From the NCBI GenBank assembly GCA_965222035.1, contig OZ244940.1, forward strand, positions 1,529,537 to 1,593,536: a DNA stretch of 64,000 nucleotides, written 5' to 3'. Below are positions 32,969 through 47,924 of the stretch, in pieces. Each line of letters starts with the position of its first letter. Positions within the stretch are counted from its first letter, which is position 1. The notes beneath the pieces were generated by a model that saw nothing but the letters and a program-made list of their open reading frames with translations, was not told the origin of the DNA and did no database searches. The translations under genes and the position numbers were made by a program. This DNA comes from Candidatus Amphirhobacter sp. (GTDB lineage Bacteria; Pseudomonadota; Gammaproteobacteria; Tethybacterales; Tethybacteraceae).

Positions 32969-33753
32969 GCGCCGGCTTGCCGGCGATCCTCGCGCACAAG
33001 CGCGAGGAGGTGGAAGCGGCCAAGCGGGAACTGGACCTGCCTGCGCTGCAAGACCGGGCTGCGGCGCAGGAACCGCTGCGCGGTTTTGCGCAGGCGCTGC
33101 GGCAGTCAAGCGAGGGGCTGGCGATCATCGCCGAGATCAAGCGCCGCAGTCCCAGCGCTGGCGACTTGCGCATCGACGACGATGTCGCGGCACGGGCGCG
33201 GCAGTATCGCGAAGGCGGCGCAGCTTGTCTCTCAGTACTCACCGACGCCGCTTTCTTCGCCGGATCGGCCGATGACCTGGCGGCGGCGCGCGTGAGCGTG
33301 GCGCTGCCGGTACTGCGCAAGGACTTCATCGTCGATGCCTGGCAGGTGCATGAGACCCGGGCGCTGGGAGCCGACTGCATGCTGCTGATCGCCGCTGCCA
33401 TGGAACCAGGTGAACTGGTTGATCTCGCCGGTCTCGGCCGCGAGCTGGGCCTGGATGTGTTGGTCGAAATCCATGCCGAGGGCGAGCTAGAGGCGGCGCT
33501 GGCAGCCGGGACCGGCTTGCTCGGCATCAACAACCGCGACCTGCGTACGATGACGATTGACTTAGGGGTGACCGAGGCCCTGGCGCCGCAGGCGGCTGCG
33601 GCTGGTTGTTTGGTGGTGGCTGAGAGCGGCATCAGCACCGTCGCCGACGCGCGCCGCGCCCGGCAGGCCGGAGCTGGATCGTTGCTGGTGGGCGAGGCGC
33701 TGATGCGCAGCGAGGATCCCGCGGTGCTGCTGGCTGAGTTGGCGGCCGCTTGA
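32965..33753 (+). CDS. trpC: Indole-3-glycerol phosphate synthase
   Basis: ILAHKREEV ... IIAEIKRRSPSAG ... LTDAAFFAGS ... LRKDFIVD. Its GTGA overlaps trpD. Confidence 0.9.
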   Translation: MSAGLPAILAHKREEVEAAKRELDLPALQDRAAAQEPLRGFAQALRQSSEGLAIIAEIKRRSPSAGDLRIDDDVAARARQYREGGAACLSVLTDAAFFAGSADDLAAARVSVALPVLRKDFIVDAWQVHETRALGADCMLLIAAAMEPGELVDLAGLGRELGLDVLVEIHAEGELEAALAAGTGLLGINNRDLRTMTIDLGVTEALAPQAAAAGCLVVAESGISTVADARRARQAGAGSLLVGEALMRSEDPAVLLAELAAA

Positions 33754-33768: not shown

Positions 33769-35349
33769 TCAGCGATTGATGGGTGGCGGCAGGACCTTGG
33801 CGGAGTGCCGCCAGAGGGGCTCGTCATAATAGGTTGGGACGTAGTCGTCGCTGTAGACTAGCAAGTCCCTCAAGTCCTTGTAAATCCTGAGCATCCCGAT
33901 TCGCCTGACGGGGGCATAATTAGTGTCAAGGACAACAACGCCATAGGTGAGGAGGTGTGAGAACAATTTCCGGTCCGGGTGCTTGGATTGGATGTCTTGG
34001 AACTTCTCTTTATCATAGATGGGGACATTGCGATGCAGGTAGTAGTAGCTGAAATGCTGCATATCAAAATACACACCTTCTAAATCCTCTTGTTCATGCA
34101 GCCAGGTGAGGCCGGCAAAGAAGCCAGGGGTGTTGTGCAGGTAGCCGAGCTGGTAGGGGTCTTTGTCAAAGCTCCCGACCTTGTAGATCCAATTGTCCTT
34201 GACGTAGCCGAGCGCGACCAGCAAGCCGAAGACCAGCTGCAAGGCGATCAGGCCGCGGGTCAGGTCATGGCGCAGCTCGCGCAGCTGGGCGTGGCGGAAC
34301 CAGGTGCTCAACAGCCAAGCCGCGGTCGGCATCCACAGGAAGAACATCGGCGCCACATAGCGGAATTCCTTGTGGGGAGATAGCATGTGCGGCAGCATGA
34401 TCGCCAGTGCCATCAGCAGGGTCAGCAGATGCAGGCGCGGCCGCCACAGCCAGGCGAGGACGGCGAGCAGGATGTAGCCAGCCGAGATGAACAGCAGCCG
34501 CTGAGGGTAGAAGATCTCGCCGCCGCCTCTGTGGAAGTCCTCCGGTGGATTGAGATTCCACAGCATGTGCATGTAGATCGAGTTGAACGGGCGTCCCCAG
34601 GTGAGGAAATCCAGCAAGCCGTAGGCGAGTATGGCCAGCAGTCCACCTGCGATAGAACGCAAGGCCCAGCGTGCGGGCATGGCTGCGGCCACCGCCAGCC
34701 ACAGGATGCCGAGCGCCGGCAGGTAGAGGTAGCGCAGGAAGGCGGCGACGCCGAGCATGATGCCGAATACCCAGGCGCCGGCGTCGCCGCGGATGAAGGG
34801 CCGGCCAGCCAGGCCCATGGCCGATGCTAGCATCACGCCGGCCAGCATGCCGGTCAGGGTCTTGGCCGCGAAGGCCAGCAGATAGAAGTTAAAGACGCCG
34901 AGCAGCAGCGCGATCCGCCCGGCGACCTCGCCGTGCTGGTGCCGGGTGAAATGGTATAGGCCCCAGGGGATTAGCAATGAGAAAACACAGAAGAATGCCT
35001 CGACGAAGGGGACGTAGTAAGCGGGGTGGTCGATGCCCAGCCACTTGAACGGCAGCAGCAGCGCCGCGACGACGCCCGGCAGCAGATAGCTGCGCCCCCC
35101 CCAGTGTGATTCCCAGGTGATGATGCCATAGCCAAACGCCAGCCGATGTCCCTGCTCCAGGTATTGCTGGATTTCGTCGAGGTAGGCGATGAAGTCAGAG
35201 AACATATGCAGGCCGAGCCGCAGCAGCAGCGCCGCCGCCAGGCAATGCGGCAGGTAACGCCAGGACGGCTGGACCGTCGCGCCTGGCGCCTGGTACAGAT
35301 TGAGGTGGCGCAGCTGGAGCAGCATGTTGGAGATGACGTTCGTGCTCAT
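33769..35349 (-). CDS. GT-C membrane glycosyltransferase, GT22/PIG-B/Alg9-like, array copy 1 (distal); hallmark motif partly degenerate
   Basis: Multi-TM N-terminus with first-loop motif YLDEIQQYLEQGHRLAFGYGIITWESHWGGRSYLLPG (LDE/TWES instead of PDE/TWEW) and a C-terminal soluble domain of about 150 aa. Confidence 0.65.
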   Translation of the reverse strand: MSTNVISNMLLQLRHLNLYQAPGATVQPSWRYLPHCLAAALLLRLGLHMFSDFIAYLDEIQQYLEQGHRLAFGYGIITWESHWGGRSYLLPGVVAALLLPFKWLGIDHPAYYVPFVEAFFCVFSLLIPWGLYHFTRHQHGEVAGRIALLLGVFNFYLLAFAAKTLTGMLAGVMLASAMGLAGRPFIRGDAGAWVFGIMLGVAAFLRYLYLPALGILWLAVAAAMPARWALRSIAGGLLAILAYGLLDFLTWGRPFNSIYMHMLWNLNPPEDFHRGGGEIFYPQRLLFISAGYILLAVLAWLWRPRLHLLTLLMALAIMLPHMLSPHKEFRYVAPMFFLWMPTAAWLLSTWFRHAQLRELRHDLTRGLIALQLVFGLLVALGYVKDNWIYKVGSFDKDPYQLGYLHNTPGFFAGLTWLHEQEDLEGVYFDMQHFSYYYLHRNVPIYDKEKFQDIQSKHPDRKLFSHLLTYGVVVLDTNYAPVRRIGMLRIYKDLRDLLVYSDDYVPTYYDEPLWRHSAKVLPPPINR

Positions 35350-36926
35350 GGTTTGATGGGCGGCGGTAGGATTTTAGCGGAATGCTGCCAGAGAGGCTCG
35401 TCATAATAGGTTGGGACGTAGTCGTCGCTGTAGACTGGCAAGTCCCTCAAGTCCTTGTAAATCCTGAGCATCCCGATTCGGCTGACGGGGGCATAATTAG
35501 TGTCAAGGACAACAACGCCATAGGTGAGGAGGTGTGAGAACAATTTCCGGTCCGGGTGCTTGGATTGGATGTCTTGGAGCTTCTCTTTATCATAGATGGG
35601 GACATTGCGATGCAGGTAGTAGTAGCTGAAATGCTGCATATCAAAATACACACCTTCTAAATCCTCTTGTTCTTGCAGCCAGGTGAGGCCGGCAAAGAAG
35701 CCAGGGGTGTTGTGCAGGTAGCCGAGCTGGTAGGGGTCTTTGTCAAAGCTCCCGACCTTGTAGATCCAATTGTCCTTGACGGCGCCAAGCGCTACCAGCA
35801 TCCCGAAAATCAGCTGGATGCCAATCAGGCCGCGGGTCAGGTCATGGCGCAGCTCGCGCAGCTGGGCGTGGCGGAACCAGGTGCTCAACAGCCAGGCCGC
35901 GGTCGGCATCCACAGGAAGAACATCGGCGCCACATAGCGGAATTCCTTGTGGGGAGATAGCATGTGCGGCAGCATGATCGCCAGTGTCATCAGCAGGGTC
36001 AGCAGATGCAGGCGCGGCCGCCACAGCCAGGCGAGGACGGCGAGCAAGATGTAGCCAGCCGAGATGAACAGCAGCCGCTGAGGGTAGAAGATCTCGCCGC
36101 CGCCTCTGTGGAAGTCCTCCGGCGGGCTGAGGTTCCACAGCATGTGCATGTAGATCGAGTTGAACGGGCGTCCCCAGGTGAGGTAATCGAGCAAGCCATA
36201 GGCGAATATGGCCAGCAGTCCACCTGCGATAGAACGCAAGGCCCAGCGTGCGGGCATGGCTGCGGCCACCGCCAGCCACAGGATGCCGAGCGCCGGCAGG
36301 TAGAGGTAGCGCAGGAAGGCGGCGACGCCGAGCATGATGCCGAATACCCAGGCGCCGGCGTCGCCGCGGATGAAGGGCCGGCCAGTCAGGCCCATGGCCG
36401 CCGCCAGCACCACGCCGGACAGCATGCCGGTCAGGGTCTTGGCCGCGAAGGCCAGCAGGTGGAAGTTGACGACGCCGAGCAGCAGCGCAATCCGCCCGGC
36501 GGTCTCGCCGTGCTGCTGCCGGGTGAAATGGTACAGCCCCCATGGAATCAGCAGCGAGACGATGCAGAAGAAGGCTTCGACGAAGGGGACGTAGTAAGCG
36601 GGGTGGTCGATGCCCAGCCACTTGAACGGCAGCAGCAGCGCCGCGACGACGCCCGGCAGCAGATAGCTGCGCGCCCCCCAGTGCCATTCCCAGGTTGTCA
36701 GGCCGTAGCCGAAGGCCAATCGATGCCCCTGCTCCAGATACTGATACAACTCGTCCGGATAAGTGATGAAGTCTGAGAACATATGCAGCCCGAGCCGCAG
36801 CAGCAGCGCCGCGGCCAGGCAATGTGGCAGGTAGCGCCAGGACGGCTGGGTCGTTGGTCCGGGAGCTTGGTAAAGTCCAAGGCGGCGCAGCTGGAGAAGC
36901 ATGCTAGGGATGGTGCTTGCGCTCAA
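35346..36926 (-). CDS. GT-C membrane glycosyltransferase, GT22/PIG-B/Alg9-like, array copy 2
   Basis: YPDELYQYLEQGHRLAFGYGLTTWEWHWGARSYLLPG. It is nearly identical to copy 1 over long stretches and has a 4-nt overlap with its neighbours. Confidence 0.7.
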   Translation of the reverse strand: MSASTIPSMLLQLRRLGLYQAPGPTTQPSWRYLPHCLAAALLLRLGLHMFSDFITYPDELYQYLEQGHRLAFGYGLTTWEWHWGARSYLLPGVVAALLLPFKWLGIDHPAYYVPFVEAFFCIVSLLIPWGLYHFTRQQHGETAGRIALLLGVVNFHLLAFAAKTLTGMLSGVVLAAAMGLTGRPFIRGDAGAWVFGIMLGVAAFLRYLYLPALGILWLAVAAAMPARWALRSIAGGLLAIFAYGLLDYLTWGRPFNSIYMHMLWNLSPPEDFHRGGGEIFYPQRLLFISAGYILLAVLAWLWRPRLHLLTLLMTLAIMLPHMLSPHKEFRYVAPMFFLWMPTAAWLLSTWFRHAQLRELRHDLTRGLIGIQLIFGMLVALGAVKDNWIYKVGSFDKDPYQLGYLHNTPGFFAGLTWLQEQEDLEGVYFDMQHFSYYYLHRNVPIYDKEKLQDIQSKHPDRKLFSHLLTYGVVVLDTNYAPVSRIGMLRIYKDLRDLPVYSDDYVPTYYDEPLWQHSAKILPPPIKP

Positions 36927-38476
36927 CGCCTGATGGGCGGCGGCAGGATCTTGGCAGAGTGCTTCCAGTTATCGTCCGAGGCAAAATCGGAACTGTAATC
37001 TTCGGTGTAAAGCGGACCAGTCCTAACATCTTCGTAGATTTTCGCACTGCCGATTTGCTTGACCAGGCGCAAGGAGGGCGAGGAAATCAGATTATAGGTG
37101 AGGATGTGCGAGACCAGTTTCTTGTCGGGGTTCTGCTTGGTGGCATGATCGAACATCGACAGATTGTAAATAGGAATATTGCGATGCAGGTAGTAGTAAT
37201 TAAAATTATGCACGGCAAACAATATGCCTTTCACATCATCTTGTTCTCGTATCCAGGCGATGGCAGGAAAGAAGTCGGGAGTGTTGTGGAAATAGCCGAG
37301 CTCGTTGTTGTCTTTGACATAGTCGCCGACGCTGTAAATCCAGTTATCATTGACGGTGTCGGACGCGACCAGCATGCTGAAAATCAGTTGAATGCCAATC
37401 AGGACGCGCGTTAGGTCATGGCGGTAAGGACGCACCCGGGCGCGCCGGCTCCAGATGCTGAGCAGCCAGGCCGCGGCCGGCATCCACAGGAAGAACAGCG
37501 GTGCCACATAGCGGAACTCCTTGTGGACGGTCAGCATGTGCGGCAACAGGATAGCCAGGTACAGCAGCATGGTCAGCAGATGCCGGCGCGGTTGCCGCAG
37601 CCAGGCGAGGATGGTAAGCGCGAGGCAGCCGGCCGAGATGAACAGCAGCCGCTGTGGATAGAAGATCTCGCCGCCGCCGGTGTGAAAGCCCTCCGGCGGG
37701 CTGAGGTTCCATAGCATGTGCATGTAGATTGAGTTGAACGGCCGCCCCCAGGTGAGATAGTCGAGCAATCCATATGCGATCACCACCAGCATCCCGCCAG
37801 CGATGGAGCGCAAGACCCAGCGCGCGGGCATGGCTATGGCGACCGCCAGCCACAGGATGCCGATGGCGGGCAGGTAGAGGTAGCGCAGGAAGAAGGCGAA
37901 GCCGAGCAGGATGCCGAACAGCCAGGCGCCCGCGTCGCCGCGGATGAATGGCCGTCCCGCCAAACCCATCGCGGCCGCCAGCATCACGCCTGACAGTGTC
38001 TCGGTCAAGGTTTTGGCCGCGAAGGTTATCAGGTAGAAGCTGACGACGCCGAGCAGCAATGCGATCCGCCCGGCGGCCTCGCCGTACTGATGCCGGGTGA
38101 AGTGGTACAGACCCCAGGGGATCAACAGCGAGACAACGCAGAAGAAGGCTTCGACGAAGGGGACGTAATAGGCGGGATGGTCGATGCCTAGCCACTTGAA
38201 TGGCAGCAACAGGGCGGCGACGACCCCGGGCAGCAGATAGCTGCGTGCCCCCCAGTGCCATTCCCAGATCGTAATGCTGTAACCGAAGGCCAGCCGATGG
38301 CCTTGCTCTTGGTAATGCCAGATTTCATCCGGAAAGGCGATGAAGTCCGAGAAGATATGCAGCCCAAGCCGCAGCAGCAGTGCGACAATCAGGCAATGAG
38401 GCAGGTAGCGCCATGACGGCTGGGGAGTCGTACCTGGCGCTTGGTACAGATTGAGGCTGTGCAGTTGGGCAAGCAT
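36923..38476 (-). CDS. GT-C membrane glycosyltransferase, GT22-like, array copy 3
   Basis: FPDEIWHYQEQGHRLAFGYSITIWEWHWGARSYLLPG. Confidence 0.7.
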   Translation of the reverse strand: MLAQLHSLNLYQAPGTTPQPSWRYLPHCLIVALLLRLGLHIFSDFIAFPDEIWHYQEQGHRLAFGYSITIWEWHWGARSYLLPGVVAALLLPFKWLGIDHPAYYVPFVEAFFCVVSLLIPWGLYHFTRHQYGEAAGRIALLLGVVSFYLITFAAKTLTETLSGVMLAAAMGLAGRPFIRGDAGAWLFGILLGFAFFLRYLYLPAIGILWLAVAIAMPARWVLRSIAGGMLVVIAYGLLDYLTWGRPFNSIYMHMLWNLSPPEGFHTGGGEIFYPQRLLFISAGCLALTILAWLRQPRRHLLTMLLYLAILLPHMLTVHKEFRYVAPLFFLWMPAAAWLLSIWSRRARVRPYRHDLTRVLIGIQLIFSMLVASDTVNDNWIYSVGDYVKDNNELGYFHNTPDFFPAIAWIREQDDVKGILFAVHNFNYYYLHRNIPIYNLSMFDHATKQNPDKKLVSHILTYNLISSPSLRLVKQIGSAKIYEDVRTGPLYTEDYSSDFASDDNWKHSAKILPPPIRR

Positions 38477-38496
38477 GCTGGAAACGGACCCTTCGC

Positions 38497-40050
38497 TCAG
38501 CGCTTGCTGGGCGCGGGCAGGACCTTGGCGGAGTTCTGCCAGTTGGGATCTGTTGAGTAATCGGAACTGTAATCTTCAGTGTAGATTGGGCCAGCCCTCA
38601 CATCCTCGTAGATCTTCGCACTGCCGATTTGCTTGACCAGGCGCAAATAAGGCGAGGAAAACAGATGATAGGTGAGGATGTGCGAGACCAGTTTCTTGCC
38701 GGGGTTCTGCTTGGTGGCATGATCGAACATCGACAGATTGTAAATAGGAATATTGCGATGCAGGTAGTAGTAATTAAAATTATGCACGGCAAACAATATG
38801 CCTTTCACATCATCTTGTTCTCGCAGCCAGGCGATGGCGGCGAAGAAATCGGGAGTGTTGTGCAAATAGCCGAGCTCGTCATTGTCCTTGTTGCTACCAC
38901 TGACATCGTAAACCCAGTAATCATTGACGGAGCCGGACGCGATCAGCATGCCGAAGGCCAGCTGAATGCCGACCAGGACGCGTACCAGGTCATGACGATA
39001 CCGGCGCAGCCGGGCGCGGCGGACCCAGTCGCTGAGCAGCCATCCTGCAGCTGGCATCCACAGGAAGAACAGCGGCGCCACAAAGCGGAACTCCTTGTGG
39101 GTGGCGAGCATGTGCGGCAGCAGGATGGACAGCGCCATTAGCAAGGTCAGCAGATGCAGGCGCGGACGTCGCAGCCAGGCGAAGATGGCGAGCAGGAAGC
39201 CGCCGGCCGAGATGAACAGCAGCCGCTGCGGATACACGAGCACGTCCCGTCCCGAATGGTAACCTTCAGTAGGATTGAAATTCCACAGCATATGTATGTA
39301 GATGGAGTTGAACGGCCGTCCCCAAGTGAGGAAATCAAGCAAGCCGTAGGCGATAATCGCCAGCAACCCTCCCGCTATTGAGCGGAGGGCCCAGCGTGCG
39401 GGCATGGTGATGGCGACCGCCAGCCACAGGATGCCGATGGCGGGCAGGTAGAGGTAGCGCAGGAAGAAGGCGAAGCCGAGCAGGATGCCGAACAGCCAGG
39501 CGCCCGCGTCGCCGCGGATGAATGGCCGTCCCGCCAAACCCATCGCGGCCGCCAGCATCACGCCTGACAGTGTCTCGGTCAAGGTTTTGGCCGCGAAGGT
39601 TATCAGGTAGAAGCTGACGACGCCGAGCAGCAATGCGATCCGCCCGGCGGCCTCGCCGTACTGATGCCGGGTGAAGTGGTACAGACCCCAGGGGATCAAC
39701 AGCGAGACAACGCAGAAGAAGGCTTCGACGAAGGGGACGTAATAGGTGGGATGGTCGATGCCTAGCCATTTGAACGGCAGCAGCAAAGCGGCGACGATTC
39801 CGGGCAGCAGATAGCTGCGCGCCCCCCAGTGCCATTCCCAGATCGTAATGCTGTAGCCGAAGGCCAGCCGATGGCCTTGCTCTTGGTAATGCCAGAGTTC
39901 ATCCGCAAAGGTGATGAAGTCGGAGAACATATGGAGGCCGAGCCGCAGCAGCAGTGCGGCTACCAGGCAATGCGGCAGGTACCGCCAGGACGGCTGGAAC
40001 GTCGTACCCGGCGCCTGGTGCATTCCCAGGCGACGCAGCTGTAGGATCAT
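38497..40050 (-). CDS. GT-C membrane glycosyltransferase, GT22-like, array copy 4
   Basis: FADELWHYQEQGHRLAFGYSITIWEWHWGARSYLLPG. The start is set at the conserved MILQLRRL; the ORF track extends to 40155. Confidence 0.65.
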   Translation of the reverse strand: MILQLRRLGMHQAPGTTFQPSWRYLPHCLVAALLLRLGLHMFSDFITFADELWHYQEQGHRLAFGYSITIWEWHWGARSYLLPGIVAALLLPFKWLGIDHPTYYVPFVEAFFCVVSLLIPWGLYHFTRHQYGEAAGRIALLLGVVSFYLITFAAKTLTETLSGVMLAAAMGLAGRPFIRGDAGAWLFGILLGFAFFLRYLYLPAIGILWLAVAITMPARWALRSIAGGLLAIIAYGLLDFLTWGRPFNSIYIHMLWNFNPTEGYHSGRDVLVYPQRLLFISAGGFLLAIFAWLRRPRLHLLTLLMALSILLPHMLATHKEFRFVAPLFFLWMPAAGWLLSDWVRRARLRRYRHDLVRVLVGIQLAFGMLIASGSVNDYWVYDVSGSNKDNDELGYLHNTPDFFAAIAWLREQDDVKGILFAVHNFNYYYLHRNIPIYNLSMFDHATKQNPGKKLVSHILTYHLFSSPYLRLVKQIGSAKIYEDVRAGPIYTEDYSSDYSTDPNWQNSAKVLPAPSKR

Positions 40051-40069
40051 GCTGGAACGGCGCTCGCGC

Positions 40070-41623
40070 TCAGCGTTTAATGGGCGCAGGCAGCACCTTG
40101 GCGGAGTGCCGCCATAGAGGTTCTTCATAATATATCGGATTGTAGTCATCGGCAACCGCCTGGTCCATTGCCATGTTCTTATAGATGCGAGCCAGCCCGA
40201 TGCGTTTGATCAAGGAGAAGCCAGGAGTGTCTAGTTGGTTATAGGTGAGCACATGCGAGACGAGTTTCTTGCCCGGGTGCTTGCTTGAGGCGTATTTTAG
40301 TCGTTCCAAGTTGTAAACAGGAACATTGCGGTGCAGATAATAGTAGTTGAAATTGTTGCCGCCGTAAAAAACTCCTTGCAGGTCTTCTTGCTCGTGCAGC
40401 CACGCAATGCCGGCGAAAAAGTCAGGGGTGTTGTGCAGGTAGCCGAGTTGGTCGGCGTCCTTGTCATAGTCGCCGACCTTGTAAATCCAGTAATCATTGA
40501 CGGCGCCAGTCGCAACCAGCAAGCCAAAAATCAGTTGGCTGGCGATTAGGATGCGAGCCAGATCATGGCGATAAGGGCGCAGCCGGGCGCGCCGGCTCCA
40601 GACGCTGAGCAGCCAGGCCGCGGCCGGCATCCAGAGGAAGAACAGCGGTGCCACAAAGCGGAACTCCTTGTTAGGGGCAAGCATGTGCGGCAAAAGGATG
40701 GCCAGGGATATCAGGATGGTCAGCAGATGCAGACGCGGGAGCCGTATCCAGGCGAAAATAGTGAGTAAGATGCCGCCGGCCGAAACGAATAACAGCCGCT
40801 GTGGATGAAAGATTTCACCGCCGCCAGAGTGAAAATCTTCCGGCGGGCTGAGGTTCCATAGCATGTGCATGTAGATTGAGTTGAACAGCCGCCCCCAGGT
40901 GAGATAGTCGAGCAATCCATATGCGATCACCACCAGCATCCCGCCAGCGATGGAGCGCAAGATCCAGCGCGCGGGCATGGCTATGGCGACCGCCAGCCAC
41001 AGGATGCCGATGGCGGGCAGGTAGAGGTAGCGCAGGAAGAAGGCGAAGCCGAGCAGGATGCCGAACAGCCAGGCGCCCGCGTCGCCGCGGATGAACGGCC
41101 GCCCCGCCAAACCCATCGCCGCCGCCAGCATCACGCCTGACAGTGTCTCGGTCAAGGTTTTGGCCGCGAAGGCTATCAGGTAGAAGCTGACGACGCCGAG
41201 CAGCAATGCGATCCGAGCAGCGGTCTCGCCGTGCTGGTGTCGGGTGAAATGGTACAGGCCCCACGGAATCAGCAGCGATAAAACGCAGAAGAATGCCTCG
41301 ACGCAGGGTACGTAATAGGCGGGATGGTCGATGCCTAGCCATTTGAACGGCAGCAGCAAAGCGGCGATGATCCCTGGCAGCAGATAGCTGCGTGCGCCCC
41401 AGTGCCACTCCCATAGAACGACGCCGTAACCAAAGGCCAGTTTATGGCCTTGCTCCAGGTAATGATGTAGTTCGTCTGGATAGGCGATGAAGTCGGAGAA
41501 CATATGAAGGCCGAGTCGCAGCAGCAGCGCAGCGGCTAGGCAATGCGGCAGATAGCACCAGGATGGCCTGCTCTTTGGCCCCGGTGCTTGGTACAGGTTT
41601 AGGCTCCGCAGGTAGGTTGCCAT
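40070..41623 (-). CDS. GT-C membrane glycosyltransferase, GT22-like, array copy 5
   Basis: YPDELHHYLEQGHKLAFGYGVVLWEWHWGARSYLLPG. The start is set at MATYLRSLNLYQAPG. Confidence 0.65.
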   Translation of the reverse strand: MATYLRSLNLYQAPGPKSRPSWCYLPHCLAAALLLRLGLHMFSDFIAYPDELHHYLEQGHKLAFGYGVVLWEWHWGARSYLLPGIIAALLLPFKWLGIDHPAYYVPCVEAFFCVLSLLIPWGLYHFTRHQHGETAARIALLLGVVSFYLIAFAAKTLTETLSGVMLAAAMGLAGRPFIRGDAGAWLFGILLGFAFFLRYLYLPAIGILWLAVAIAMPARWILRSIAGGMLVVIAYGLLDYLTWGRLFNSIYMHMLWNLSPPEDFHSGGGEIFHPQRLLFVSAGGILLTIFAWIRLPRLHLLTILISLAILLPHMLAPNKEFRFVAPLFFLWMPAAAWLLSVWSRRARLRPYRHDLARILIASQLIFGLLVATGAVNDYWIYKVGDYDKDADQLGYLHNTPDFFAGIAWLHEQEDLQGVFYGGNNFNYYYLHRNVPVYNLERLKYASSKHPGKKLVSHVLTYNQLDTPGFSLIKRIGLARIYKNMAMDQAVADDYNPIYYEEPLWRHSAKVLPAPIKR

Positions 41624-41627
41624 GCTG

Positions 41628-43184
41628 TCAACGTTTGATTGGCGAGGGCAGGAACTTGGCGGAGTGCTGCCATAGGATTTCATCCTCATATGTCGGGATG
41701 TAGTCATCGACGAACACCTGCCCTTCTCTGGAATCTTTATAGAGATAGACTTCGCCTATTTTATGCACTAGCTGAAAGCCAGGCTTATTGATTGGATTGT
41801 AGGCGATGACATGGGAAATTAGTTTCTTGCCTGGATGCTTTCGGGAAGCGAGGCCGAGCTTGACCAAATCATAGATGGGAACATCACGATGCAGATGGTA
41901 GTAGTTGAAATTGTCCTCACTGAAAAACACACCTTCTAAATCCTCTTGTTCATGCAGCCAGGCGAGGCCGGCGAAGAAGTCCGGGGTATTGTGCAGGTAT
42001 CCGAGCTGGTTGTTGCCTTTGTCAATATGCCCGACTTTGTAGATCCAATTATCCTTGACGGCGCCAAGCGCGACCAGCATGCCAAAGGCCAGCTGGGTGC
42101 CGATCAGGACGCGGGTAAGGTCATGGCGGTACCGGCGCAGCCTGGCGCGGCGGCCCCAGTCGCTGAGCAGCCAGCCGGCAGCCGGCATCCACAGGAAGAA
42201 CAGCGGCGCCACATAGCGGAACTCCTTGTGGTAAGTAAGCATGTGCGGCAGCAGGACGGCTAGGGACAGCAGTATGGCCAGCAAATGCGGGCGCGGCTGA
42301 CGCAGCCAGGCAAACAAGGCAAGCAGGATGCCTCCAGCTGAGACGAATAGCAGCCGCTGCGGGTAGAAAATCCCGTCGCCGGTATGGAAGCCTTCCTTGT
42401 CCACTGGATTGAGGTGCCAAACCAAGTGAGCGTAAATCGAGTTGAAAGGCCGTCCCCAGGTGAGGTAATCGAGCAAGCCGGCGGCGAGTACGGCCATCAT
42501 TCCCCCTGCGATGGAGCGCAAGGCCCAGCGCGAAGGCATGGCGACCGCGACCGCCAGCCACAGGATGCCAAGGACGGGCAGGTAGAGATAGCGCAGGAAG
42601 GCGGCGATGCCGAGCACGATTCCGAACAACCAAGCGCCGGCGTCGCCGCGGATGAACGGCCGGCCGGCCAGGCCCATCGCCGCCGCCAGCATTGTTGCGG
42701 TTAGTATGTCGGTCAGGGTCTTGGCCGCGAAGGCCAGCAGGTAGAAGTTGACGACGCCGAGCAGCAGGGCAATCCGAGCAGCGGCCTCGCTGTGATGGTG
42801 CCGGGTGAAGTGGTACAGCCCCCAGGGGAGCAGCAGCGAGAAAACGCAGAAGAAGGCCTCGACGACAGGCACGTAGTAGACAGGATGATCGAAGCCTAGC
42901 CACTTGAACGGCAGCAGCAGCCCAGCGATGATCCCTGGCAGCAGGTAGCTGTGCGTGCCCCAGTTCCACTCCCAGGTGATAAGGCCGTAGCCGAAGGCCA
43001 GTCGATGTCCCTGCTCCAGGTACTGATACAGTTCATCCGGATAGGAGATGAAGTCGGAGAACATATGCAGCCCGAGCCGCAGCAGCAGCGCCACAATCAG
43101 GCAATGCGGCAAGTAGCGCCAGGACGGTTGGGCCGTCGTACCAGGCGCTTGGTATATTCCCATGCGGCGCAGTTGAAGAATCAT
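41628..43184 (-). CDS. GT-C membrane glycosyltransferase, GT22-like, array copy 6
   Basis: YPDELYQYLEQGHRLAFGYGLITWEWNWGTHSYLLPG. The start is set at MILQLRRMGIYQAPG. Confidence 0.65.
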   Translation of the reverse strand: MILQLRRMGIYQAPGTTAQPSWRYLPHCLIVALLLRLGLHMFSDFISYPDELYQYLEQGHRLAFGYGLITWEWNWGTHSYLLPGIIAGLLLPFKWLGFDHPVYYVPVVEAFFCVFSLLLPWGLYHFTRHHHSEAAARIALLLGVVNFYLLAFAAKTLTDILTATMLAAAMGLAGRPFIRGDAGAWLFGIVLGIAAFLRYLYLPVLGILWLAVAVAMPSRWALRSIAGGMMAVLAAGLLDYLTWGRPFNSIYAHLVWHLNPVDKEGFHTGDGIFYPQRLLFVSAGGILLALFAWLRQPRPHLLAILLSLAVLLPHMLTYHKEFRYVAPLFFLWMPAAGWLLSDWGRRARLRRYRHDLTRVLIGTQLAFGMLVALGAVKDNWIYKVGHIDKGNNQLGYLHNTPDFFAGLAWLHEQEDLEGVFFSEDNFNYYHLHRDVPIYDLVKLGLASRKHPGKKLISHVIAYNPINKPGFQLVHKIGEVYLYKDSREGQVFVDDYIPTYEDEILWQHSAKFLPSPIKR

Positions 43185-43203
43185 GCTGGAGGTTGTGCCA
43201 CGC

Positions 43204-44757
43204 TCAACGCTTGACAGGCGGAGGCAGGATCTTGGCGGAGTGCTGCCAGAAGCGTTCATCAGGATAAGTCGGGACGTAGTCTGCGCTGTAAATTGGCAAA
43301 TCCCTTATGTCTTTGTAAATCCTGACGTTGCCGATTCTTTTGACGAGAACGTAATCGGGCTTAATCAAAGCGGCATAGGTGATGACGTGCGAAAACAGTT
43401 TCCGGCCGGGGTGCTTGAGCTGGGCGTTTTCCAATTTCCACTCATCATAGATGGGAACATCGCGATGTAGATAATAGTAGCTGAAATTATTTACATTGAA
43501 ATAAACACTCTCCACATCCTCTTGCTCATGCAGCCAGGCGATGCCGGCGAAAAAATCCGGCGTGTTGTGCAGATAGCCGAGCTCGACGTTGCCTTTGCCA
43601 ATATCCCCGACTTCGTAGATCCAATTGTCATTGATGGCGCCAAGCGCTACTAGTACGCCGAAGGCCAGCTGGATGCCAATCAGGCCGCGCATCAGGTCAT
43701 AGCGACACCAGCGCAGCCGGGCGCGGCGGCCCCAGCCGCTGACCAGCCAGCCAGCGGCCGGCATCCACAGGAAGAACAGCGGCGCTACATAGCGGAACTC
43801 CTTGTGGACGGTCAGCATGTGCGGCAGGAGGATAGCCAGGTACAGCAGCATGAGCAGCAGATGCAGGCGCGGTTGCCGCAGCCAGGCGATGATGGTAAGA
43901 ACGATGCAGCCGGCCGAGATGAACAGCAGCCGCTGTGGATAGAAGGATTCGCCGCCGCCGCTGTGGAAGCCCTCCGGTGGATTGAGATTCCACAGCATGT
44001 GCATGTAGATCGAGTTGAACGGGCGTCCCCAGGTGAGGTAATCGAGCAAGCCATAGGCGAATATGGCCAGCAGCCCGCCCGCGATCGAGCGCAGAGTCCA
44101 TCGCGCGGGCATGGTGATAGCGACCGCCAGCCACAGGATGCCGAGCGCTGGCAGATAGAGATAACGCAGGAAAGCGGCGACGCCGAGCAGGATGCCGAAC
44201 AGCCAGGCGCCGGCGTCGCCGCGGATGAACGGCCGGGAGGCCAGGCCCATGGCCGCCGCCAGCATGGTACCGGCCATGATCTCGGTCAACGTCTTGGCCG
44301 CGAAGGCCAGCAGGTAGAAGTTGACGACGCCGAGCAGCAGCGCGATCCGCCCGGCGGTCTCGCCGTACTGCTGCCGGGTGAAATGGTACAGCCCCCATGG
44401 AATCAGCAGCGAGACGATGCAGAAGAAGGCTTCGACGAAGGGGGCGTAATATGACGGATGGTCGATCCCCAGCCACTTGAACGGCAGCAGCAACGCCGCG
44501 ACGATGCCGGGCAGCAGATAATTGCGCGCGCCCCAGTGCCATTCCCAAAAGACGAGGCCGTAGCCGAACGCCAGCCTATGTCCCTGCTCCAGGTATTGGT
44601 GCAGTTCATCCGGGTAGACGACGAAGTCGGAGAACATATGCAGCCCGAGCCGCAGCAGCAGCGCCGCAAGCAGGCAATGCGGCAGGTAGCGCCAGGACGG
44701 CTGGACCGTCGCACCAGGCGCTTGGTACAGGTTGAGGCGGCGTAGCTGAAGAATCAT
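43204..44757 (-). CDS. GT-C membrane glycosyltransferase, GT22-like, array copy 7
   Basis: YPDELHQYLEQGHRLAFGYGLVFWEWHWGARNYLLPG. Confidence 0.7.
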   Translation of the reverse strand: MILQLRRLNLYQAPGATVQPSWRYLPHCLLAALLLRLGLHMFSDFVVYPDELHQYLEQGHRLAFGYGLVFWEWHWGARNYLLPGIVAALLLPFKWLGIDHPSYYAPFVEAFFCIVSLLIPWGLYHFTRQQYGETAGRIALLLGVVNFYLLAFAAKTLTEIMAGTMLAAAMGLASRPFIRGDAGAWLFGILLGVAAFLRYLYLPALGILWLAVAITMPARWTLRSIAGGLLAIFAYGLLDYLTWGRPFNSIYMHMLWNLNPPEGFHSGGGESFYPQRLLFISAGCIVLTIIAWLRQPRLHLLLMLLYLAILLPHMLTVHKEFRYVAPLFFLWMPAAGWLVSGWGRRARLRWCRYDLMRGLIGIQLAFGVLVALGAINDNWIYEVGDIGKGNVELGYLHNTPDFFAGIAWLHEQEDVESVYFNVNNFSYYYLHRDVPIYDEWKLENAQLKHPGRKLFSHVITYAALIKPDYVLVKRIGNVRIYKDIRDLPIYSADYVPTYPDERFWQHSAKILPPPVKR

Positions 44758-44775
44758 GCTGGAGGTTGTGCCACG

Positions 44776-46326
44776 TCAACGCTTGATAGGCGGCGGCAGG
44801 ATCTTGGCGGAGTGCTGCCAGTTGGGTCCCTCATAATACCTTGAATTGTAGCCGTCGATGTAGGTCGGCGTATCTCTGATGTCTTTGTAAATCCTGACGT
44901 TGCCGATTCTTTTGGCGAGAACGTAATCGGGATTAATCAAAGCGCTATAGGTGATGATGTGCGAAAACAGTTTCTGGCCGGGGTGCTTGAGCTGGGCGTC
45001 TTTCAATGTCCAGCTATTATAGATGGGGACATCGCGATGCAGATAATAGTAGTTGAAATTATTCACATTGAAATAAACGCTCTCCACATCCTCTTGCTCA
45101 TGCAGCCAGGCGATGCCGGCGAAAAAATCCGGCGTGTTGTGCAGATAGCCGAGCTGGTCGTTGACTTTGTCAATATGCCCGACCTTGTAGACCCAATTGT
45201 CATTGATGGCGCCAAGCGCTACTAGCACGCCGAAGGCCAGCTGGATGCCAATCAGGCCGCGCGCTAGGTCATGGCGATACCAGCGCAGCCGGGCGCGGCG
45301 GCTCCCGCTGACCAGCCAGCTAGCAGCCGGCATCCACAGGAAGAACAGCGGTGCCACATAGCGGAACTCCTTGTGGACGGTCAGCATGTGCGGCAACAGG
45401 ATAGCCAGGTACAGCAGCATGGTCAGCAGATGCCGGCGCGGTTGCCGCAGCCAGGCGAGGATGGTAAGCGCGAGGCAGCCGGCCGAGATGAACAGCAGCC
45501 GCTGTGGATAGAAGATCTCGCCGCCGCCGGTGTGAAAGCCCTCCGGTGGATTGAGGTTCCACAGCATGTGCATGTAGATCGAGTTGAACGGACGTCCCCA
45601 GGTGAGGAAATCGAGCAAGCCGTAGGCGATTATCGCCAGCAACCCGCCCGCGATCGAGCGCAAGGCCCAGCGTGCGGGCATGGTTGCGGCGACTGCCAGC
45701 CACAAAATGCCGAGCGCCGGCAGGTAGAGATAACGCAGGAAAGCGGCGACGCCGAGCAGGATGCCGAACAGCCAGGCGCCAGCGTCGCCGCGGATGAACG
45801 GCCGGCCCGTCAGGCCCATCGCCGCCGCCAGCATCACGCCGGCCAGCATGCCGGTCAGCGTCTTGGCTGCGAAGGCCAGCAGGTGGAAGCTGACGACGCC
45901 GAGCAGCAGCGCGATCCGCCCGGCGGCCTCGCCGTACTGCTGCCGGGTGAAATGGTACAGCCCCCACGGAATCAGCAGCGAGACGATGCAGAAGAAGGCT
46001 TCGACGAAGGGAACGTAATAGGAGGGATGGTCGATGCCCAGCCACTTGAACGGCAGCAGCAGTGCCGCGACGATGCCGGGCAGCAGATAATTGCGCGCGC
46101 CCCAGTGCCACTCCCCAAAGACGAGGCCGTAGCCGAACGCCAGCTTGTGTCCTTGCTCCAGGTACTGCTGCAGCTCGTCCGGATAGGCGACGAAGTCCGA
46201 GAACATATGCAGCCCGAGCCGCAGCAGCAGCGCCGCGATCAGGCAATGCGGCAGGTAGCGCCAGGATGGCTGGACCGTCGTACCAGGCGCTTGGTACAGG
46301 TTGAGGCGGCGCAGCTGGAGAAGCAT
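44776..46326 (-). CDS. GT-C membrane glycosyltransferase, GT22-like, array copy 8
   Basis: YPDELQQYLEQGHKLAFGYGLVFGEWHWGARNYLLPG (TWEW is replaced by FGEW). Confidence 0.7.
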   Translation of the reverse strand: MLLQLRRLNLYQAPGTTVQPSWRYLPHCLIAALLLRLGLHMFSDFVAYPDELQQYLEQGHKLAFGYGLVFGEWHWGARNYLLPGIVAALLLPFKWLGIDHPSYYVPFVEAFFCIVSLLIPWGLYHFTRQQYGEAAGRIALLLGVVSFHLLAFAAKTLTGMLAGVMLAAAMGLTGRPFIRGDAGAWLFGILLGVAAFLRYLYLPALGILWLAVAATMPARWALRSIAGGLLAIIAYGLLDFLTWGRPFNSIYMHMLWNLNPPEGFHTGGGEIFYPQRLLFISAGCLALTILAWLRQPRRHLLTMLLYLAILLPHMLTVHKEFRYVAPLFFLWMPAASWLVSGSRRARLRWYRHDLARGLIGIQLAFGVLVALGAINDNWVYKVGHIDKVNDQLGYLHNTPDFFAGIAWLHEQEDVESVYFNVNNFNYYYLHRDVPIYNSWTLKDAQLKHPGQKLFSHIITYSALINPDYVLAKRIGNVRIYKDIRDTPTYIDGYNSRYYEGPNWQHSAKILPPPIKR

Positions 46327-46346
46327 GCTGGGGACGGCGCCCGCGC

Positions 46347-47924
46347 TCAGCGCCTGATGGGCGGCGGCAGGACCTTGGCGGAGTTCTGCCAGTTGGGTTC
46401 TTCAAAGTACATCGGGGTGTATTCCTTGTCATAGATCGGCGCATCCCGAATGTCTTTGTAAATCTTGAGATGGCCGATTTGCTTGACGAGAACGTACTGG
46501 GGCGGGCTGAATTCGCCATAGGTGATGATGTGCGAGACGAATTTCCGATCCGGGTGCTTTCGCTGGGCATATAGATATTTCAAATCATCATAGATAGGGA
46601 CATCGCGATGCAGGTGGTAGTAGTTGAAATTATTCACATTGACATAAAGACCCTCCAAGTCATCTTGCTCATGCAGCCAGGTGAGGCCAGCGAAGTAGGC
46701 TGGGGTGTTATGCAGGTAGCCCATCTGGTCGATGCCCTTGTCATGACTGCCGACATTGTAGATCCAATTGTCCTTGACGGCGCCGATCGCGACCAGCAAG
46801 CCGAAGACCAGCTGCAAGGCGATCAGGCCGCGGGTCAGGTCATGGCGAATGTGGCGCAGCTGGGCGTGGCGGAACCAGGCGCTCAGCAGCCAGGCCGCGG
46901 CCGGTATCCACAGGAAGAACATCGGCGCTATATAGCGGAACTCCTTGTGGACGGTCAGCATGTGCGGCAGCATGATGGCTAGCGCCATCAGCAGGGTCAG
47001 CAGATGCAGGCGGGGCCGCCACAGCCAGGCGAGGACAGCGAACAGGATGTAGCCGGCCGAGATGAACAGCAGCCGCTGCGGATAGAAGATCTCGCCTTCG
47101 CCGGTGTGAAAGCCCTCCGTCGGGTTGAGGTTCCACAGCATGTGCATGTACATGGAGTTGAACATCCGGCCCCAGGTGAGGAAATCCAGCAAGCCGTAAG
47201 CGAGGATGGCCAGCAGTCCGCCCGCGAGTGAGCGCAGGATCCAGCGCGCGGGCATGGTGATAGCGACCGCCAGCCACAGGATGCCGAGCGCTGGCAGGTA
47301 GAGATAACGCAGGAAAGCGGCGACGCCGAGCAGGATCCCGAACAGCCAGGCGCCGGCGTCGCCGCGGATGAACGGCCGGCCACTCAGTCCCATGGCCGCC
47401 GCCAGCATCACGCCGGACAGCATGCCGGTCAGGGTCTTGGCCGCGAAGGCCAGCAGATAGAAGTTGACGACGCCGAGCAGCAGCGCGATCCGCCCGGCGG
47501 TCTCGCCGTACTGCTGCCGAGTGAAATGGTACAGGCCCCACGGGATCAGCAGCGAGACAAAGCAGAAAACAGATTCGACGAAAGGGACGTAATAGGAGGG
47601 ATGGTCGATGCCCAGCCACTTGAACGGCAGCAGCAGTCCAGCGACGATTCCCGGCAGCAGATAATTGCGCGCGCCCCAGTGCCACTCCCAAAAGACGAGG
47701 CCGTAGCCGAACACCAGCTTGTGCCCTTGCTCCAGGTACTGCTGCAGCTCGTCCGGATAGGCGACGAAGTCGGAGAACATATGGAGGCCGAGCCGCAGCA
47801 GCAACGCGGCGATCAGGCAATGCGGCAGGTAGCGCCAGGATGGCTGGACCGTCGGGCCCGGCGCTTGGTATATTCCCAGGCGGCGCAGCTGGAGCAGCAT
47901 GCTAGAGACGACGGTTGCGTTCAA
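46347..47924 (-). CDS. GT-C membrane glycosyltransferase, GT22-like, array copy 9
   Basis: YPDELQQYLEQGHKLVFGYGLVFWEWHWGARNYLLPG. Confidence 0.7.
   Translation of the reverse strand: MNATVVSSMLLQLRRLGIYQAPGPTVQPSWRYLPHCLIAALLLRLGLHMFSDFVAYPDELQQYLEQGHKLVFGYGLVFWEWHWGARNYLLPGIVAGLLLPFKWLGIDHPSYYVPFVESVFCFVSLLIPWGLYHFTRQQYGETAGRIALLLGVVNFYLLAFAAKTLTGMLSGVMLAAAMGLSGRPFIRGDAGAWLFGILLGVAAFLRYLYLPALGILWLAVAITMPARWILRSLAGGLLAILAYGLLDFLTWGRMFNSMYMHMLWNLNPTEGFHTGEGEIFYPQRLLFISAGYILFAVLAWLWRPRLHLLTLLMALAIMLPHMLTVHKEFRYIAPMFFLWIPAAAWLLSAWFRHAQLRHIRHDLTRGLIALQLVFGLLVAIGAVKDNWIYNVGSHDKGIDQMGYLHNTPAYFAGLTWLHEQDDLEGLYVNVNNFNYYHLHRDVPIYDDLKYLYAQRKHPDRKFVSHIITYGEFSPPQYVLVKQIGHLKIYKDIRDAPIYDKEYTPMYFEEPNWQNSAKVLPPPIRR

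Follow-up and report, generated by a model that had tools for sequence, protein, structure and literature searches.

The terminal gene of a ten-copy glycosyltransferase array (copy 1) is probably a chimera, in which an older, inherited variant of periplasmic loop 1 is joined to a body recently overwritten with copy 2-type sequence, within an array that evolves by segmental conversion and unequal exchange. The variant loop is matched codon for codon in a sister genome, and the remainder of the gene is a mosaic of tracts closest to different copies of the same array. The residues corresponding to those essential in a human homologue are retained.

Results

Organization of the array and assignment of its products

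The window (the whole 64,000-nt stretch of DNA analyzed) contains ten tandem paralogues of ~1.57 kb on the minus strand, identified from its ORF list (33769–49504; Table 1). The repeat period is regular across the array (1561–1577 nt), and the ten genes are probably a single transcription unit. A promoter and terminator scan within the array returned only repeated in-gene consensus matches and was of no value; Rfam and tRNA scans identified one tRNA-Met (14249–14325) and no rRNA. Copy 1 is convergent with trpC, and its start overlaps the stop of copy 2, whose database entry takes the Met at 36902 as its start (a 518-aa protein). Each array gene is predicted to encode a GT22 (ALG9/ALG12-like) GT-C membrane glycosyltransferase. 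The three copies searched against Pfam all match PF03901 (Glyco_transf_22; curated cut-off, 23.8 bits), with scores of 96.4 bits for copy 2, 88.8 bits for copy 7, and 24 bits less than copy 2 for copy 1. No NCBIfam model fits the array proteins. A profile search of the PDB matched ALG12 (E = 3e-15) and also ALG9. The AF2 model of copy 1 (pTM 0.90) supports the GT-C(A) fold, which is defined by a conserved N-terminal TM module, a variable TM module, and a C-terminal extracytoplasmic domain; the best Foldseek matches were GgALG12 (TM 0.63/0.68) and HsALG9 (0.61/0.59), followed by OST, PglB, and ArnT.

Table 1. Coordinates of the array genes and of the segments and codons of copy 1 discussed in the text
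Feature	Position	Strand	Description
Copy 1 (c1/W1)	33769..35349	-	Intact 526-aa ORF, predicted GT22 GT-C; PF03901, 72.7 bits; AF2 pLDDT 87.7
Copy 2 (c2/W2)	35346..36926	-	Predicted GT22 paralogue; protein P0001 100% identical over 518 aa
Copies 3–10	36923..49504	-	Same array; 4–20-nt spacers or 4-nt overlaps; partners in mosaic exchange
Copy 1 head	35078..35349	-	Gene nt 1–272: N-tail, TM1, periplasmic loop 1 with LDE/TWES; orthologous to B2
Copy 1 segment closest to copy 10	34809..35077	-	Gene nt 273–541; copy 10 is at the opposite end of the array
Tract shared by copies 1 and 2, copy 1 side	33818..34808	-	Gene nt 542–1532; 27 mismatches in 991 nt, 15 in 949 nt without the 42-nt patch
Tract shared by copies 1 and 2, copy 2 side	35395..36385	-	From the mismatch profile of copies 1 and 2
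42-nt patch in copy 1 tract	34205..34246	-	12 mismatches to copy 2; copy 9-like instead
Leu57 codon, CTC	35179..35181	-	Precedes catalytic Asp58-Glu59; most other copies Pro (CCG), two base changes
Ser81 codon, TCA	35107..35109	-	Copy 2 has TGG; 52 other aligned homologues aromatic (W/Y/F); B2 has the same codon

Copies 1 and 2 are similar in segments

The original prediction described copies 1 and 2 as near-identical. They are the closest pair of the ten, with identities of 92.5% (nucleotide) and 91.4% (amino acid), and copies 7 and 8 follow closely at 90.6%; the resemblance is nevertheless mosaic rather than uniform. The 119 ungapped mismatches in 1581 nt are strongly clustered, and the longest stretch without a mismatch measures 179 nt (34630–34808 = 36207–36385). 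By gene position, identity is 85% over nt 1–541, 98% over nt 542–1103, 71% over nt 1104–1145, 99% over nt 1146–1532, and 76% in the final 46 nt. The shared tract spans approximately half of the transmembrane core, TM8–11, and the C-terminal periplasmic domain, and the motif differences lie outside it, where the two copies resemble each other least. Other segments of copy 1 have other partners. The region of the 42-nt patch is identical to copy 9 over 60 nt (34213–34272 = 46788–46847), and the copy 10-like segment includes a perfect 95-nt match (34978–35072 = 49121–49215). Overall dN/dS between copies 1 and 2 is 0.24, with an ω of 0.19 and a dS of 0.62 in the 5′ third. Antisense ORFs had also been reported to be reproduced verbatim in the two copies. 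Their translations are identical at 87/97 and 140/147 residues, and one is 147 aa in one copy and 270 aa in the other; they were rejected as genes because they are not identical and differ in length, and their likeness follows from the nucleotide identity of the two copies in GC-rich DNA.

The variant head of copy 1 is inherited

Copy 1 reads YLDEIQQY...TWESHWGG where copy 2 reads YPDELYQY...TWEWHWGA. The difference is real, but the accompanying statement that all other copies share the copy 2 motifs is incorrect: copy 3 has FPDEI, copy 4 has FADEL (and has thus also lost the Pro), copy 8 has FGEWHWGA, and copy 6 has TWEWNWGTH. The first 272 nt of copy 1 are 95–99% identical to B2, a gene of sister genome B, versus 75–82% to copy 2, and B2 contains the identical YLDEIQQY/TWESHWG motifs and uses the same two variant codons, CTC and TCA. 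Over nt 1–273, copy 1 and B2 are 96.7% identical, and their nine differences (a small count) comprise six synonymous and three non-synonymous changes. This divergence equals that of the flanking housekeeping genes (89–97% identical). The genome of copy 1 itself offered no close donor for the head, which is at most 88% identical to any copy in the window. Sequencing error is excluded as the origin of the motif changes, as neither can arise from a single base change (CCG to CTC and TGG to TCA, two changes each) and an independent assembly shows both of them. Since the same head and codons occur in the sister genome, the variant was inherited and reflects neither error nor fresh decay. The LDE/TWES head is present in only two genomes. 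A scan of JGI metagenomes with a degenerate 32-mer for the LDE head found six loci, none of which encodes a GT22 relative; these are chance matches.

Catalytic residues are retained in copy 1

In HsALG9, D82 is the catalytic base, the W103F substitution abolishes activity, the salt bridge between E104 and R112 is important, and activity requires R112 and R370 (PMC13503287). D58-E59 of copy 1 align with D82A-E83 of PDB entry 9s6s (the GgALG12 counterpart is E35), and D58, W79, E80, R86, and R330 align with the key HsALG9 residues. All are kept in copy 1, including the acceptor-contacting Trp, the Glu-Arg salt bridge, and the two donor-phosphate arginines (HsALG9 W103, E104, R112, and R370). Among 54 aligned homologues, the catalytic columns contain D in 53 and E in 53; copy 8 lacks W79 (Gly) and copy 6 lacks R86 (His). 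The column preceding the catalytic Asp is more variable, with Pro in 42 homologues, Ala in six, Leu (the residue in copy 1) in two, Gln in two, and Ser and Thr in one each. The Pro is therefore absent from 12 of the 54 homologues, and from 12 of 46 array genes. Conserved non-Pro paralogues include genes resembling copies 3 and 4 in sister genomes (Ala, Ser, or Thr) and the last gene of three alphaproteobacterial arrays, which has FDEY. HsALG9 has Cys at this position, so a Pro hallmark is not general to GT22. On the evidence of the alignment, this Pro is dispensable and is not a defining GT22 feature. In contrast, the residue following the loop-1 Trp-Glu (the HsALG9 Y105 position) is Tyr in 22 homologues, Trp in 18, Phe in 12, and Ser in two, namely copy 1 and B2. 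Of the two substitutions, only aromatic-to-Ser appears truly unusual, being without precedent among the 54 homologues. The claim of a lost GT22 signature in the original prediction fails because the catalytic residues are intact.

A dead or decaying terminal pseudoenzyme, in which the Trp-to-Ser and Pro-to-Leu changes destroyed acceptor binding, is an unlikely explanation for these observations. The rarity of Ser at position 81 is consistent with it, as is the location of this residue beside two functionally important positions (those corresponding to W103 and E104 of HsALG9, in which W103F alone is enough to kill activity). The trpC-adjacent array gene is also degraded in sister genomes, by a frameshift in genome B and an internal deletion in genome E. 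However, those degraded terminal genes are of a different type (YPDELYNY, not LDE), whereas copy 1 is a full-length 526-aa ORF with no stops or frameshifts, an ω of 0.24 relative to copy 2, and a confident fold prediction. It keeps every essential residue tested in ALG9, and its variant head has been conserved across genomes, most of the changes being synonymous. Copy 1 probably remains an active enzyme whose acceptor pocket is altered; an inactive protein is disfavored, and a putatively neo-functionalised one is plausible.

Gene conversion operates across the array

The closest partner switches along each gene of the array, and sharp-edged mosaic tracts join many pairs. Perfect tracts, checked directly in the window sequence, link copies 3 and 4 over 337 nt (37836–38172/39410–39746; the longest in the array), copies 3 and 8 over 221 nt (37476–37696/45326–45546), and copies 3 and 5 over 132 nt (37817–37948/40964–41095). 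Because perfect tracts longer than any between copies 1 and 2 join copy 3 with copies 4 and 8, gene conversion spans the whole array. A GENECONV-like column-permutation test gave a global p ≤ 0.002 for the pairs 1–2, 3–4, and 3–8, and several further pairs were significant at a pairwise p ≤ 0.002. Over nt 542–1532, copies 1 and 2 are 98–99% identical, whereas the best sister-genome match is 94–98% (C2 of genome C, only over nt 1220–1459) and at most 93% elsewhere. These paralogous tracts are thus closer within the genome than to the best sister-genome orthologue, as expected under gene conversion. The dS of the tract (0.03–0.06) is lower than that of the flanking genes relative to sister genomes (0.09–0.15), which places the exchange after the lineages split. 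Across the array, homogenization is concentrated in the transmembrane core (dS 0.3–0.4); loop 1 and the C-terminal domain are deeply diverged (dS 1.1–1.2).

Sister genomes show the consequences of such exchange. The window has 10 copies; genome B has 11 (two disrupted), genome C has 11, and genome E has at least eight. Modules are recombined between genomes; for example, C2 combines a copy 6-type body with a C terminus of the copy 1/2 type. For the body and C terminus of B2, none of the four genomes compared contains a close relative (mostly 70–88% identity per 120-nt window, with the exception of one short C9-like segment); the body of copy 1 is 98–99% identical to that of its neighbor, copy 2. 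The genomes are ~95% identical, and the GT22 locus differs far more than the surrounding genes. Collectively, these results support the prediction that gene conversion is ongoing and is accompanied by copy-number and chimeric-gene variation.

The other origin proposed for the pair, a very recent tandem duplication followed by 5′ differences and loss of motif residues under relaxed selection on a redundant terminal copy, is very improbable. It would account for the adjacency of copies 1 and 2, their status as the closest pair, the identity of their 3′ 1 kb, and the lower Pfam score of copy 1, but it is already largely refuted by the orthologue B2, which the 5′ 272 nt match closely, both variant codons included. 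In addition, the dS and ω of the 5′ third indicate old, constrained divergence instead of fresh decay, and nt 273–541 match copy 10. An assembly artefact (mis-joined or strain-mixed repeats) is highly unlikely: although all genomes compared are metagenome assemblies in which repeat errors are possible, short-read contigs break in arrays (the L004, L007, and AqS2 scaffolds start or end inside one), and the frameshifted copies in genome B could be read errors, the window array lies on a 1.86-Mb contig with a regular repeat period, four independent assemblies have the same locus and module types (with 10–11 copies in the three whole arrays), and independent assemblies agree on the head of copy 1 codon for codon.

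Discussion

The observations are best explained by a chimeric origin of copy 1 in an array that would evolve through segmental gene conversion and unequal exchange between copies. Copy 1 would descend from a distinct, older paralogue type with an LDE...TWES loop 1 and would not be a newly made duplicate of the neighboring copy 2. Once the lineages had separated, nt 273–541 would have been overwritten from a copy 10-like donor and nt 542–1532 from copy 2, with the small copy 9-like patch inside the latter. The resulting gene would combine a variant loop 1 with the transmembrane body and the C-terminal periplasmic domain found in copy 2. As the LDE/TWES head occurs in only two genomes, the proposed direction of conversion rests on parsimony; the youth of the chimera means that selection on the new combination is not measurable. 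Copy 1 most likely still transfers a sugar from a polyprenyl-phosphate donor at the periplasmic face. A polyprenyl-phosphate-mannose synthase was not found among the window ORFs scanned, where only a PGM/PMM gene was seen (58338–60431). The Leu before the catalytic Asp and the Ser after Trp-Glu are predicted to alter the shape of the acceptor pocket and not to abolish catalysis.

To our knowledge, bacterial GT22 enzymes are essentially unstudied. The relationship between copies 1 and 2 is itself a modest case of concerted evolution, but the exchange is patterned, with a homogenized core and a loop 1 and C-terminal domain that are kept distinct. In ALG12, loop 1 and the C-terminal domain form the acceptor cavity. 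The array may conceivably be a combinatorial generator of glycosyltransferase diversity, in which the core is kept uniform and the acceptor-pocket modules of loop 1 and the C terminus are reshuffled among 10–11 paralogues; we raise this possibility tentatively and do not consider it the probable one. If it were true, related sponge-symbiont strains would carry different enzyme chimeras and hence different surface glycans, with plausible roles in host recognition or in evading phage or the lectins of the host, and copy 1 would be a chimera observed soon after its formation. Should such arrays set strain-specific surface glycans, they would provide a testable way into the question of how sponges distinguish symbionts from the bacteria they eat. 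The chimeric reading of copy 1 also makes copies 1 and 2 a natural experiment, with the same body and a different loop 1.

Eukaryotic ALG9 and ALG12 (CAZy GT22; PDB 9s6s, 9s6u, and 9s6t) are Dol-P-Man-dependent mannosyltransferases of the ER lumen that share the Pfam family and GT-C(A) fold of the array proteins. The similarities extend to a C-terminal lumenal or periplasmic domain, a catalytic Asp/Glu that opens the first loop helix, and alignable Trp-Glu...Arg and His-Lys-Glu-x-Arg motifs. The array proteins are only 15–18% identical to them, however, and are encoded in a bacterium by ten tandem paralogues instead of single-copy genes; ALG9 further differs in the Cys before its catalytic Asp.

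Closer relatives are found in the sponge symbiont AqS2 and in AqS1. AqS2 (Amphirhobacter heronislandensis, Tethybacterales), to which the host of the window appears to be related, has tandem GT22 genes next to trpC/trpD (~50% amino acid identity) in the same synteny, in which the GT22 genes are followed by convergent trpC-trpD and the Mla operon. Its scaffold breaks inside the array, where the contig ends with two copies visible, and the LDE/TWES variant is absent. AqS1 contains an adjacent pair of GT22 genes, also with ~50% amino acid identity. The Tethybacterales literature searched contained no description of a tandem GT22 array, and searches for GT22 in symbionts, sponge mannosyltransferases, and Tethybacterales glycosyltransferases found nothing relevant. 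An alignment-based scan of GTDB genome contigs (in which copy 7 alone as query gave no confirmed relative) located head-to-tail arrays of 2–6 GT22 genes in other uncultured bacteria, including Nitrospirales, Alpha- and Gammaproteobacteria, and Latescibacterota MAGs. Neighboring genes are 60–85% identical at the amino acid level in the most uniform of these arrays and far more diverged in others, and the conserved FDEY copies of the three alphaproteobacterial arrays are terminal. In contrast to the window, these arrays have fewer copies, only ~30% identity to the window genes, and no trpC synteny. Many MAGs that are apparently sponge-associated contain GT22 relatives, and these frequently form tandem arrays.

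Segmental gene conversion is a general phenomenon among paralogues, both tandem and dispersed, and is seen for example in families of bacterial surface-protein genes. The array resembles families undergoing concerted evolution in having within-genome tracts more similar than orthologues, sharp breakpoints, variable copy number, and chimeras, but its units are enzymes, not antigens.

A head-to-tail array of ten GT22 genes

The interval 33769-36926 holds the final two genes of an array of ten head-to-tail paralogs with a period of 1561-1577 nt, numbered here from copy 1, beside trpC, to copy 10. Intergenic gaps are 4-20 nt, or are replaced by 4-nt overlaps, and from this spacing the ten genes probably form one operon. 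A promoter and terminator scan within the array gave only recurrent consensus hits inside genes. The array lies between the convergent trpD/trpC pair and a divergent ArsP_2 permease gene, beyond which are genes for TldD, a CN-hydrolase, an AAA_22 protein, and YhdP. Copies 1, 2, and 7 matched PF03901 (Glyco_transf_22) in Pfam far above threshold, comparison of the family profile with solved structures returned chicken ALG12 and human ALG9, and the AlphaFold model of copy 1 (pLDDT 87.7, pTM 0.90) was nearest to the same two proteins, with TM-scores of 0.6-0.68. On this evidence, the array encodes bacterial GT22-family enzymes of the GT-C type.

Of the genes seen in the window, just one is related to sugar nucleotides. 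It encodes a phosphoglucomutase/phosphomannomutase (PGM/PMM), and its ortholog in the sister genomes is annotated with 461 aa; the window ORFs scanned yielded no polyprenyl-phosphate-mannose synthase. A second tandem array occupies a stretch of lower G+C, and three of its four genes carry an HNH_4 endonuclease domain. The four AAA_22 ATPase paralogs are scattered, two of them beside trpD in a low-GC (56%) stretch. Between sister genomes, the AAA_22 genes share 72-94% nucleotide identity versus 95-97% for neighboring housekeeping genes, and the trpD site holds one of them in genomes B and C but two in genome E and the window.

Coordinates of the array, shared tracts, neighboring genes, and related loci
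Feature	Position	Strand	Remarks
GT22 array	33769-49504	-	ten genes
Copy 1	33769-35349	-
Copy 2	35346-36926	-
Copy 6	41628-43184	-	His at 42951-42953
Copy 8	44776-46326	-	Gly (GGG) at 46114-46116
Copy 1/copy 2 near-identical 3' tract	33818-34808, 35395-36385
Perfect tract, copies 3 and 4	37836-38172 = 39410-39746		337 nt
Perfect tract, copies 3 and 8	37476-37696 = 45326-45546		221 nt
Perfect tract, copies 3 and 5	37817-37948 = 40964-41095		132 nt
Perfect tract, copies 1 and 10	34978-35072 = 49121-49215		95 nt
Perfect tract, copies 1 and 9	34213-34272 = 46788-46847		60 nt
trpD/trpC	31937-33753	+	convergent, low-coordinate side
trpC	32965-33753	+	adjoins array end
ArsP_2 permease gene	49553-50710	+	divergent, high-coordinate side
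PGM/PMM gene	58338-60431	-	9 kb from array; ORF as listed, 697 aa
Second tandem array	15192-19832	-	four adjacent paralogs, 374-403 aa
AAA_22 gene	1087-2283	+
AAA_22 gene	28207-29409	-
AAA_22 gene	30546-31757	-
AAA_22 gene	53052-54215	-
YPDELYNY gene, genome B	L002 11579-13304		frameshifted; preceded by 335-nt gap
YPDELYNY gene, genome E	L005 10001-11281		internal deletion, 426 aa
AqS2 scaffold_36	L008 1-6532

Sequence exchange across the array

No pair in the array is more alike than copies 1 and 2, at 92.5% nucleotide and 91.4% amino acid identity; copies 7 and 8 share 90.6%, copies 3 and 4 share 86.6%, and every other pair falls at 74-85%. The near-identity originally claimed for copies 1 and 2 holds for a 1-kb tract toward the 3' end but not elsewhere. 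Their gap-free alignment contains 119 strongly clustered mismatches, with 81 in gene nt 1-541 (85% identity), 11 in nt 542-1103 (98%), 12 in the 42 nt of 1104-1145, 4 in nt 1146-1532 (99%), and 11 in the final 46 nt; the longest stretch without a mismatch measures 179 nt. The tract is interrupted by a divergent patch because copy 1 matches copy 9 at that point. Antisense ORFs said to be reproduced verbatim in the two genes proved to be identical at only 87 of 97 and 140 of 147 residues and to differ in length (147 versus 270 aa), and their likeness adds no information beyond nucleotide identity.

When the copies were compared in sliding windows, each one changed its closest partner along the gene. 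A GENECONV-like permutation of polymorphic columns gave globally significant fragments (p<=0.002) for copies 3-4, 3-8, and 1-2, and pairwise-significant fragments for copies 1-10, 1-9, 3-5, 2-7, and others. Perfect tracts were checked directly in the window sequence, and the one shared by copies 1 and 10 joins the array's opposite ends across 14 kb. Since significant fragments and perfect tracts connect many pairs, exchange spans the whole array, the latest events lying outside the copy 1/copy 2 pair, and the gene conversion originally proposed is borne out.

A protein search identified syntenic arrays in several metagenome-assembled contigs, from sister genomes designated B, C, and E (a further genome, F, is a strain near-identical to C). 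The array has 11 copies in B, the first split in two (363 and 159 aa) and the last frameshifted; 11 copies in C, all intact; and at least 8 in E, the last with an internal deletion. The trpC-adjacent gene in the sister genomes is a further paralog type, YPDELYNY; the window array lacks it and ends with copy 1 instead. Flanking genes are 89-97% identical to those of the window, with dS of about 0.09-0.15; trpC, at 0.24-0.31, has two to three times the dS of trpD, ArsP_2, and TldD. Best full-length matches between "orthologous" array genes reach only 83-92%, well under the flanks. When four gene segments were clustered separately, modules were found to be combined differently from genome to genome; for example, the second array gene of C (C2) joins a copy 6 body (92-98%) to the C-terminal domain of copies 1/2 (94-98%). 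These recombined modules and the difference between 10 and 11 copies confirm the predicted chimeric-gene and copy-number variation.

Origin of copy 1

The second array gene of genome B (B2; P0021), which starts MSANVISNMLLQ..., reads YLDEIQQY...TWESHWGA, the copy 1 variant of the motif. Over gene nt 1-273, copy 1 and B2 differ at nine positions (96.7% identity), six synonymous and three nonsynonymous, none of them in the motif. Both genes have CTC for the Leu, where other window copies keeping Pro have CCG, and TCA for the Ser, where the other copies examined have TGG. Because each change requires two substitutions and the same codons occur in B2, neither sequencing error nor recent decay of the copy 1 motif accounts for them. 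Copy 1 inherited its head as an allele that has diverged as much as the flanking genes have.

Past nt 272, copy 1 and B2 diverge. Copy 1 is copy 10-like over nt 273-541 and copy 2-like thereafter; with its head matching B2, this runs counter to a simple recent duplication of copies 1 and 2. Copy 1 and its neighbor copy 2 share 98-99% identity in the body, and dS in the shared tract (0.03-0.06) is less than half of that between genomes. The body and C-terminus of B2 reach mostly 70-88% per window and have no close relative in the four genomes compared, apart from one short segment resembling C9. The parsimonious reading, of moderate confidence and based on two LDE-type genes, is that copy 1 was the recipient of conversion after the lineages split.

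Signature residues and activity

In the ALG3/9/12 structures, D82 of HsALG9 is the catalytic base, W103 contacts the acceptor mannose through a hydrogen bond (W103F abolishes activity), the E104-R112 salt bridge matters, and R112 and R370 are essential and hold the donor phosphate (PMC13503287). Residue equivalences were taken from a profile alignment to 9s6s and a 54-sequence alignment. All five ALG9 functional residues are present in copy 1, as D58, W79, E80, R86, and R330, so the catalytic signature thought to be lost is retained. Of the 54 homologs, 42 have Pro before the Asp and the others have A, Q, S, T, or L; Pro is also absent from 12 of 46 array genes across genomes, ALG9 has Cys at the position, and three alphaproteobacterial GT22 arrays have Phe there in their last gene. 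Given these replacements, Pro is dispensable and not a defining residue. The other half of the predicted hallmark change stands: Ser occupies the site following Trp-Glu in the copy 1 type alone, against an aromatic residue in 52 of the 54 sequences, a genuine and unique departure adjoining two functional residues. Copy 1 may plausibly be neofunctionalized; that this substitution marks a dead enzyme is improbable, with the five functional residues in place.

Copy 8 has Gly at the equivalent of HsALG9 W103, where all other copies and its orthologs C8, B8, and E7 have Trp (TGG). This single base change is confined to this genome and reflects a base error or else a true mutation that inactivates or alters the enzyme. 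Copy 6 has His at the equivalent of the donor-phosphate Arg112 of HsALG9, a column that is Arg in 52 of 54 family members; the His is a stable variant type, since it is conserved in B7 and C2/F2. By the logic of the original prediction, copies 8 and 6 are better candidates than copy 1 for altered or lost activity, because they are changed at residues essential in ALG9.

Selection and proposed function

Pairwise dN/dS over the array is 0.21-0.37 (0.24 for copies 1 and 2, and 0.19 in their 5' third), and that of flanking genes is 0.03-0.18. Pooled over all copy pairs, dS is low in the transmembrane core (0.3-0.4) and high in loop 1 (1.07; omega 0.12) and the C-terminal domain (1.24; omega 0.29; 53% amino acid identity). 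Loop 1 and the C-terminal domain are thus much older than the core, which is homogenized by conversion while both extracytoplasmic elements stay distinct under purifying selection. In ALG12, these two elements (the latter lumenal) jointly build the acceptor-branch cavity (PMC13503287), so the pattern would be consistent with paralogs of differing acceptor specificity. By homology, each enzyme would transfer a polyprenyl-phosphate-carried sugar, likely mannose judging from the family, to an acceptor on the periplasmic face, and a surface glycan could be assembled or modified by ten such enzymes expressed from one operon, acting in sequence or in place of one another. In copy 1, a loop 1 of unusual sequence is joined to the copy 2 body and C-terminal domain, and the enzyme would be expected to act on a related acceptor with altered positioning.

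Relatives and wider occurrence

A scan for the family gave 76 loci spread over many phyla, many of them apparently sponge- or marine-host-associated MAGs, with 2-6 tandem copies at 16 loci. Such tandem arrays turn up repeatedly among unrelated, uncultured bacteria, many of them seemingly from metagenomes of sponges or marine hosts, including Nitrospirales (six copies; L016), Alphaproteobacteria (four each; L019, L036, L062), and Gammaproteobacteria (four each; L026, L054, L009). The final copy of the three alphaproteobacterial arrays is conserved and carries FDEYMQYLEVGH, without the Pro. No published description of tandem bacterial GT22 arrays was found in the literature searched.

The nearest named relatives, at about 50% amino acid identity, are from two symbionts of the sponge Amphimedon queenslandica, AqS2 and AqS1; AqS2 is Amphirhobacter heronislandensis, order Tethybacterales (PMC8546597). 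AqS2 scaffold_36 opens partway through two tandem GT22 genes and continues with convergent trpC-trpD and MlaE, the same synteny as in the window (TrpD 77% and MlaE 83% identical). Because the scaffold starts within the array, the AqS2 array is probably under-assembled. Given these relatives, the window probably belongs to a related sponge symbiont with a small genome. Overall, gene conversion with chimeric and copy-number variation is upheld, and simple recent duplication and loss of the catalytic signature are not; the phenomenon is that of a tandem gene family undergoing concerted evolution, here in an unstudied bacterial branch of GT22.
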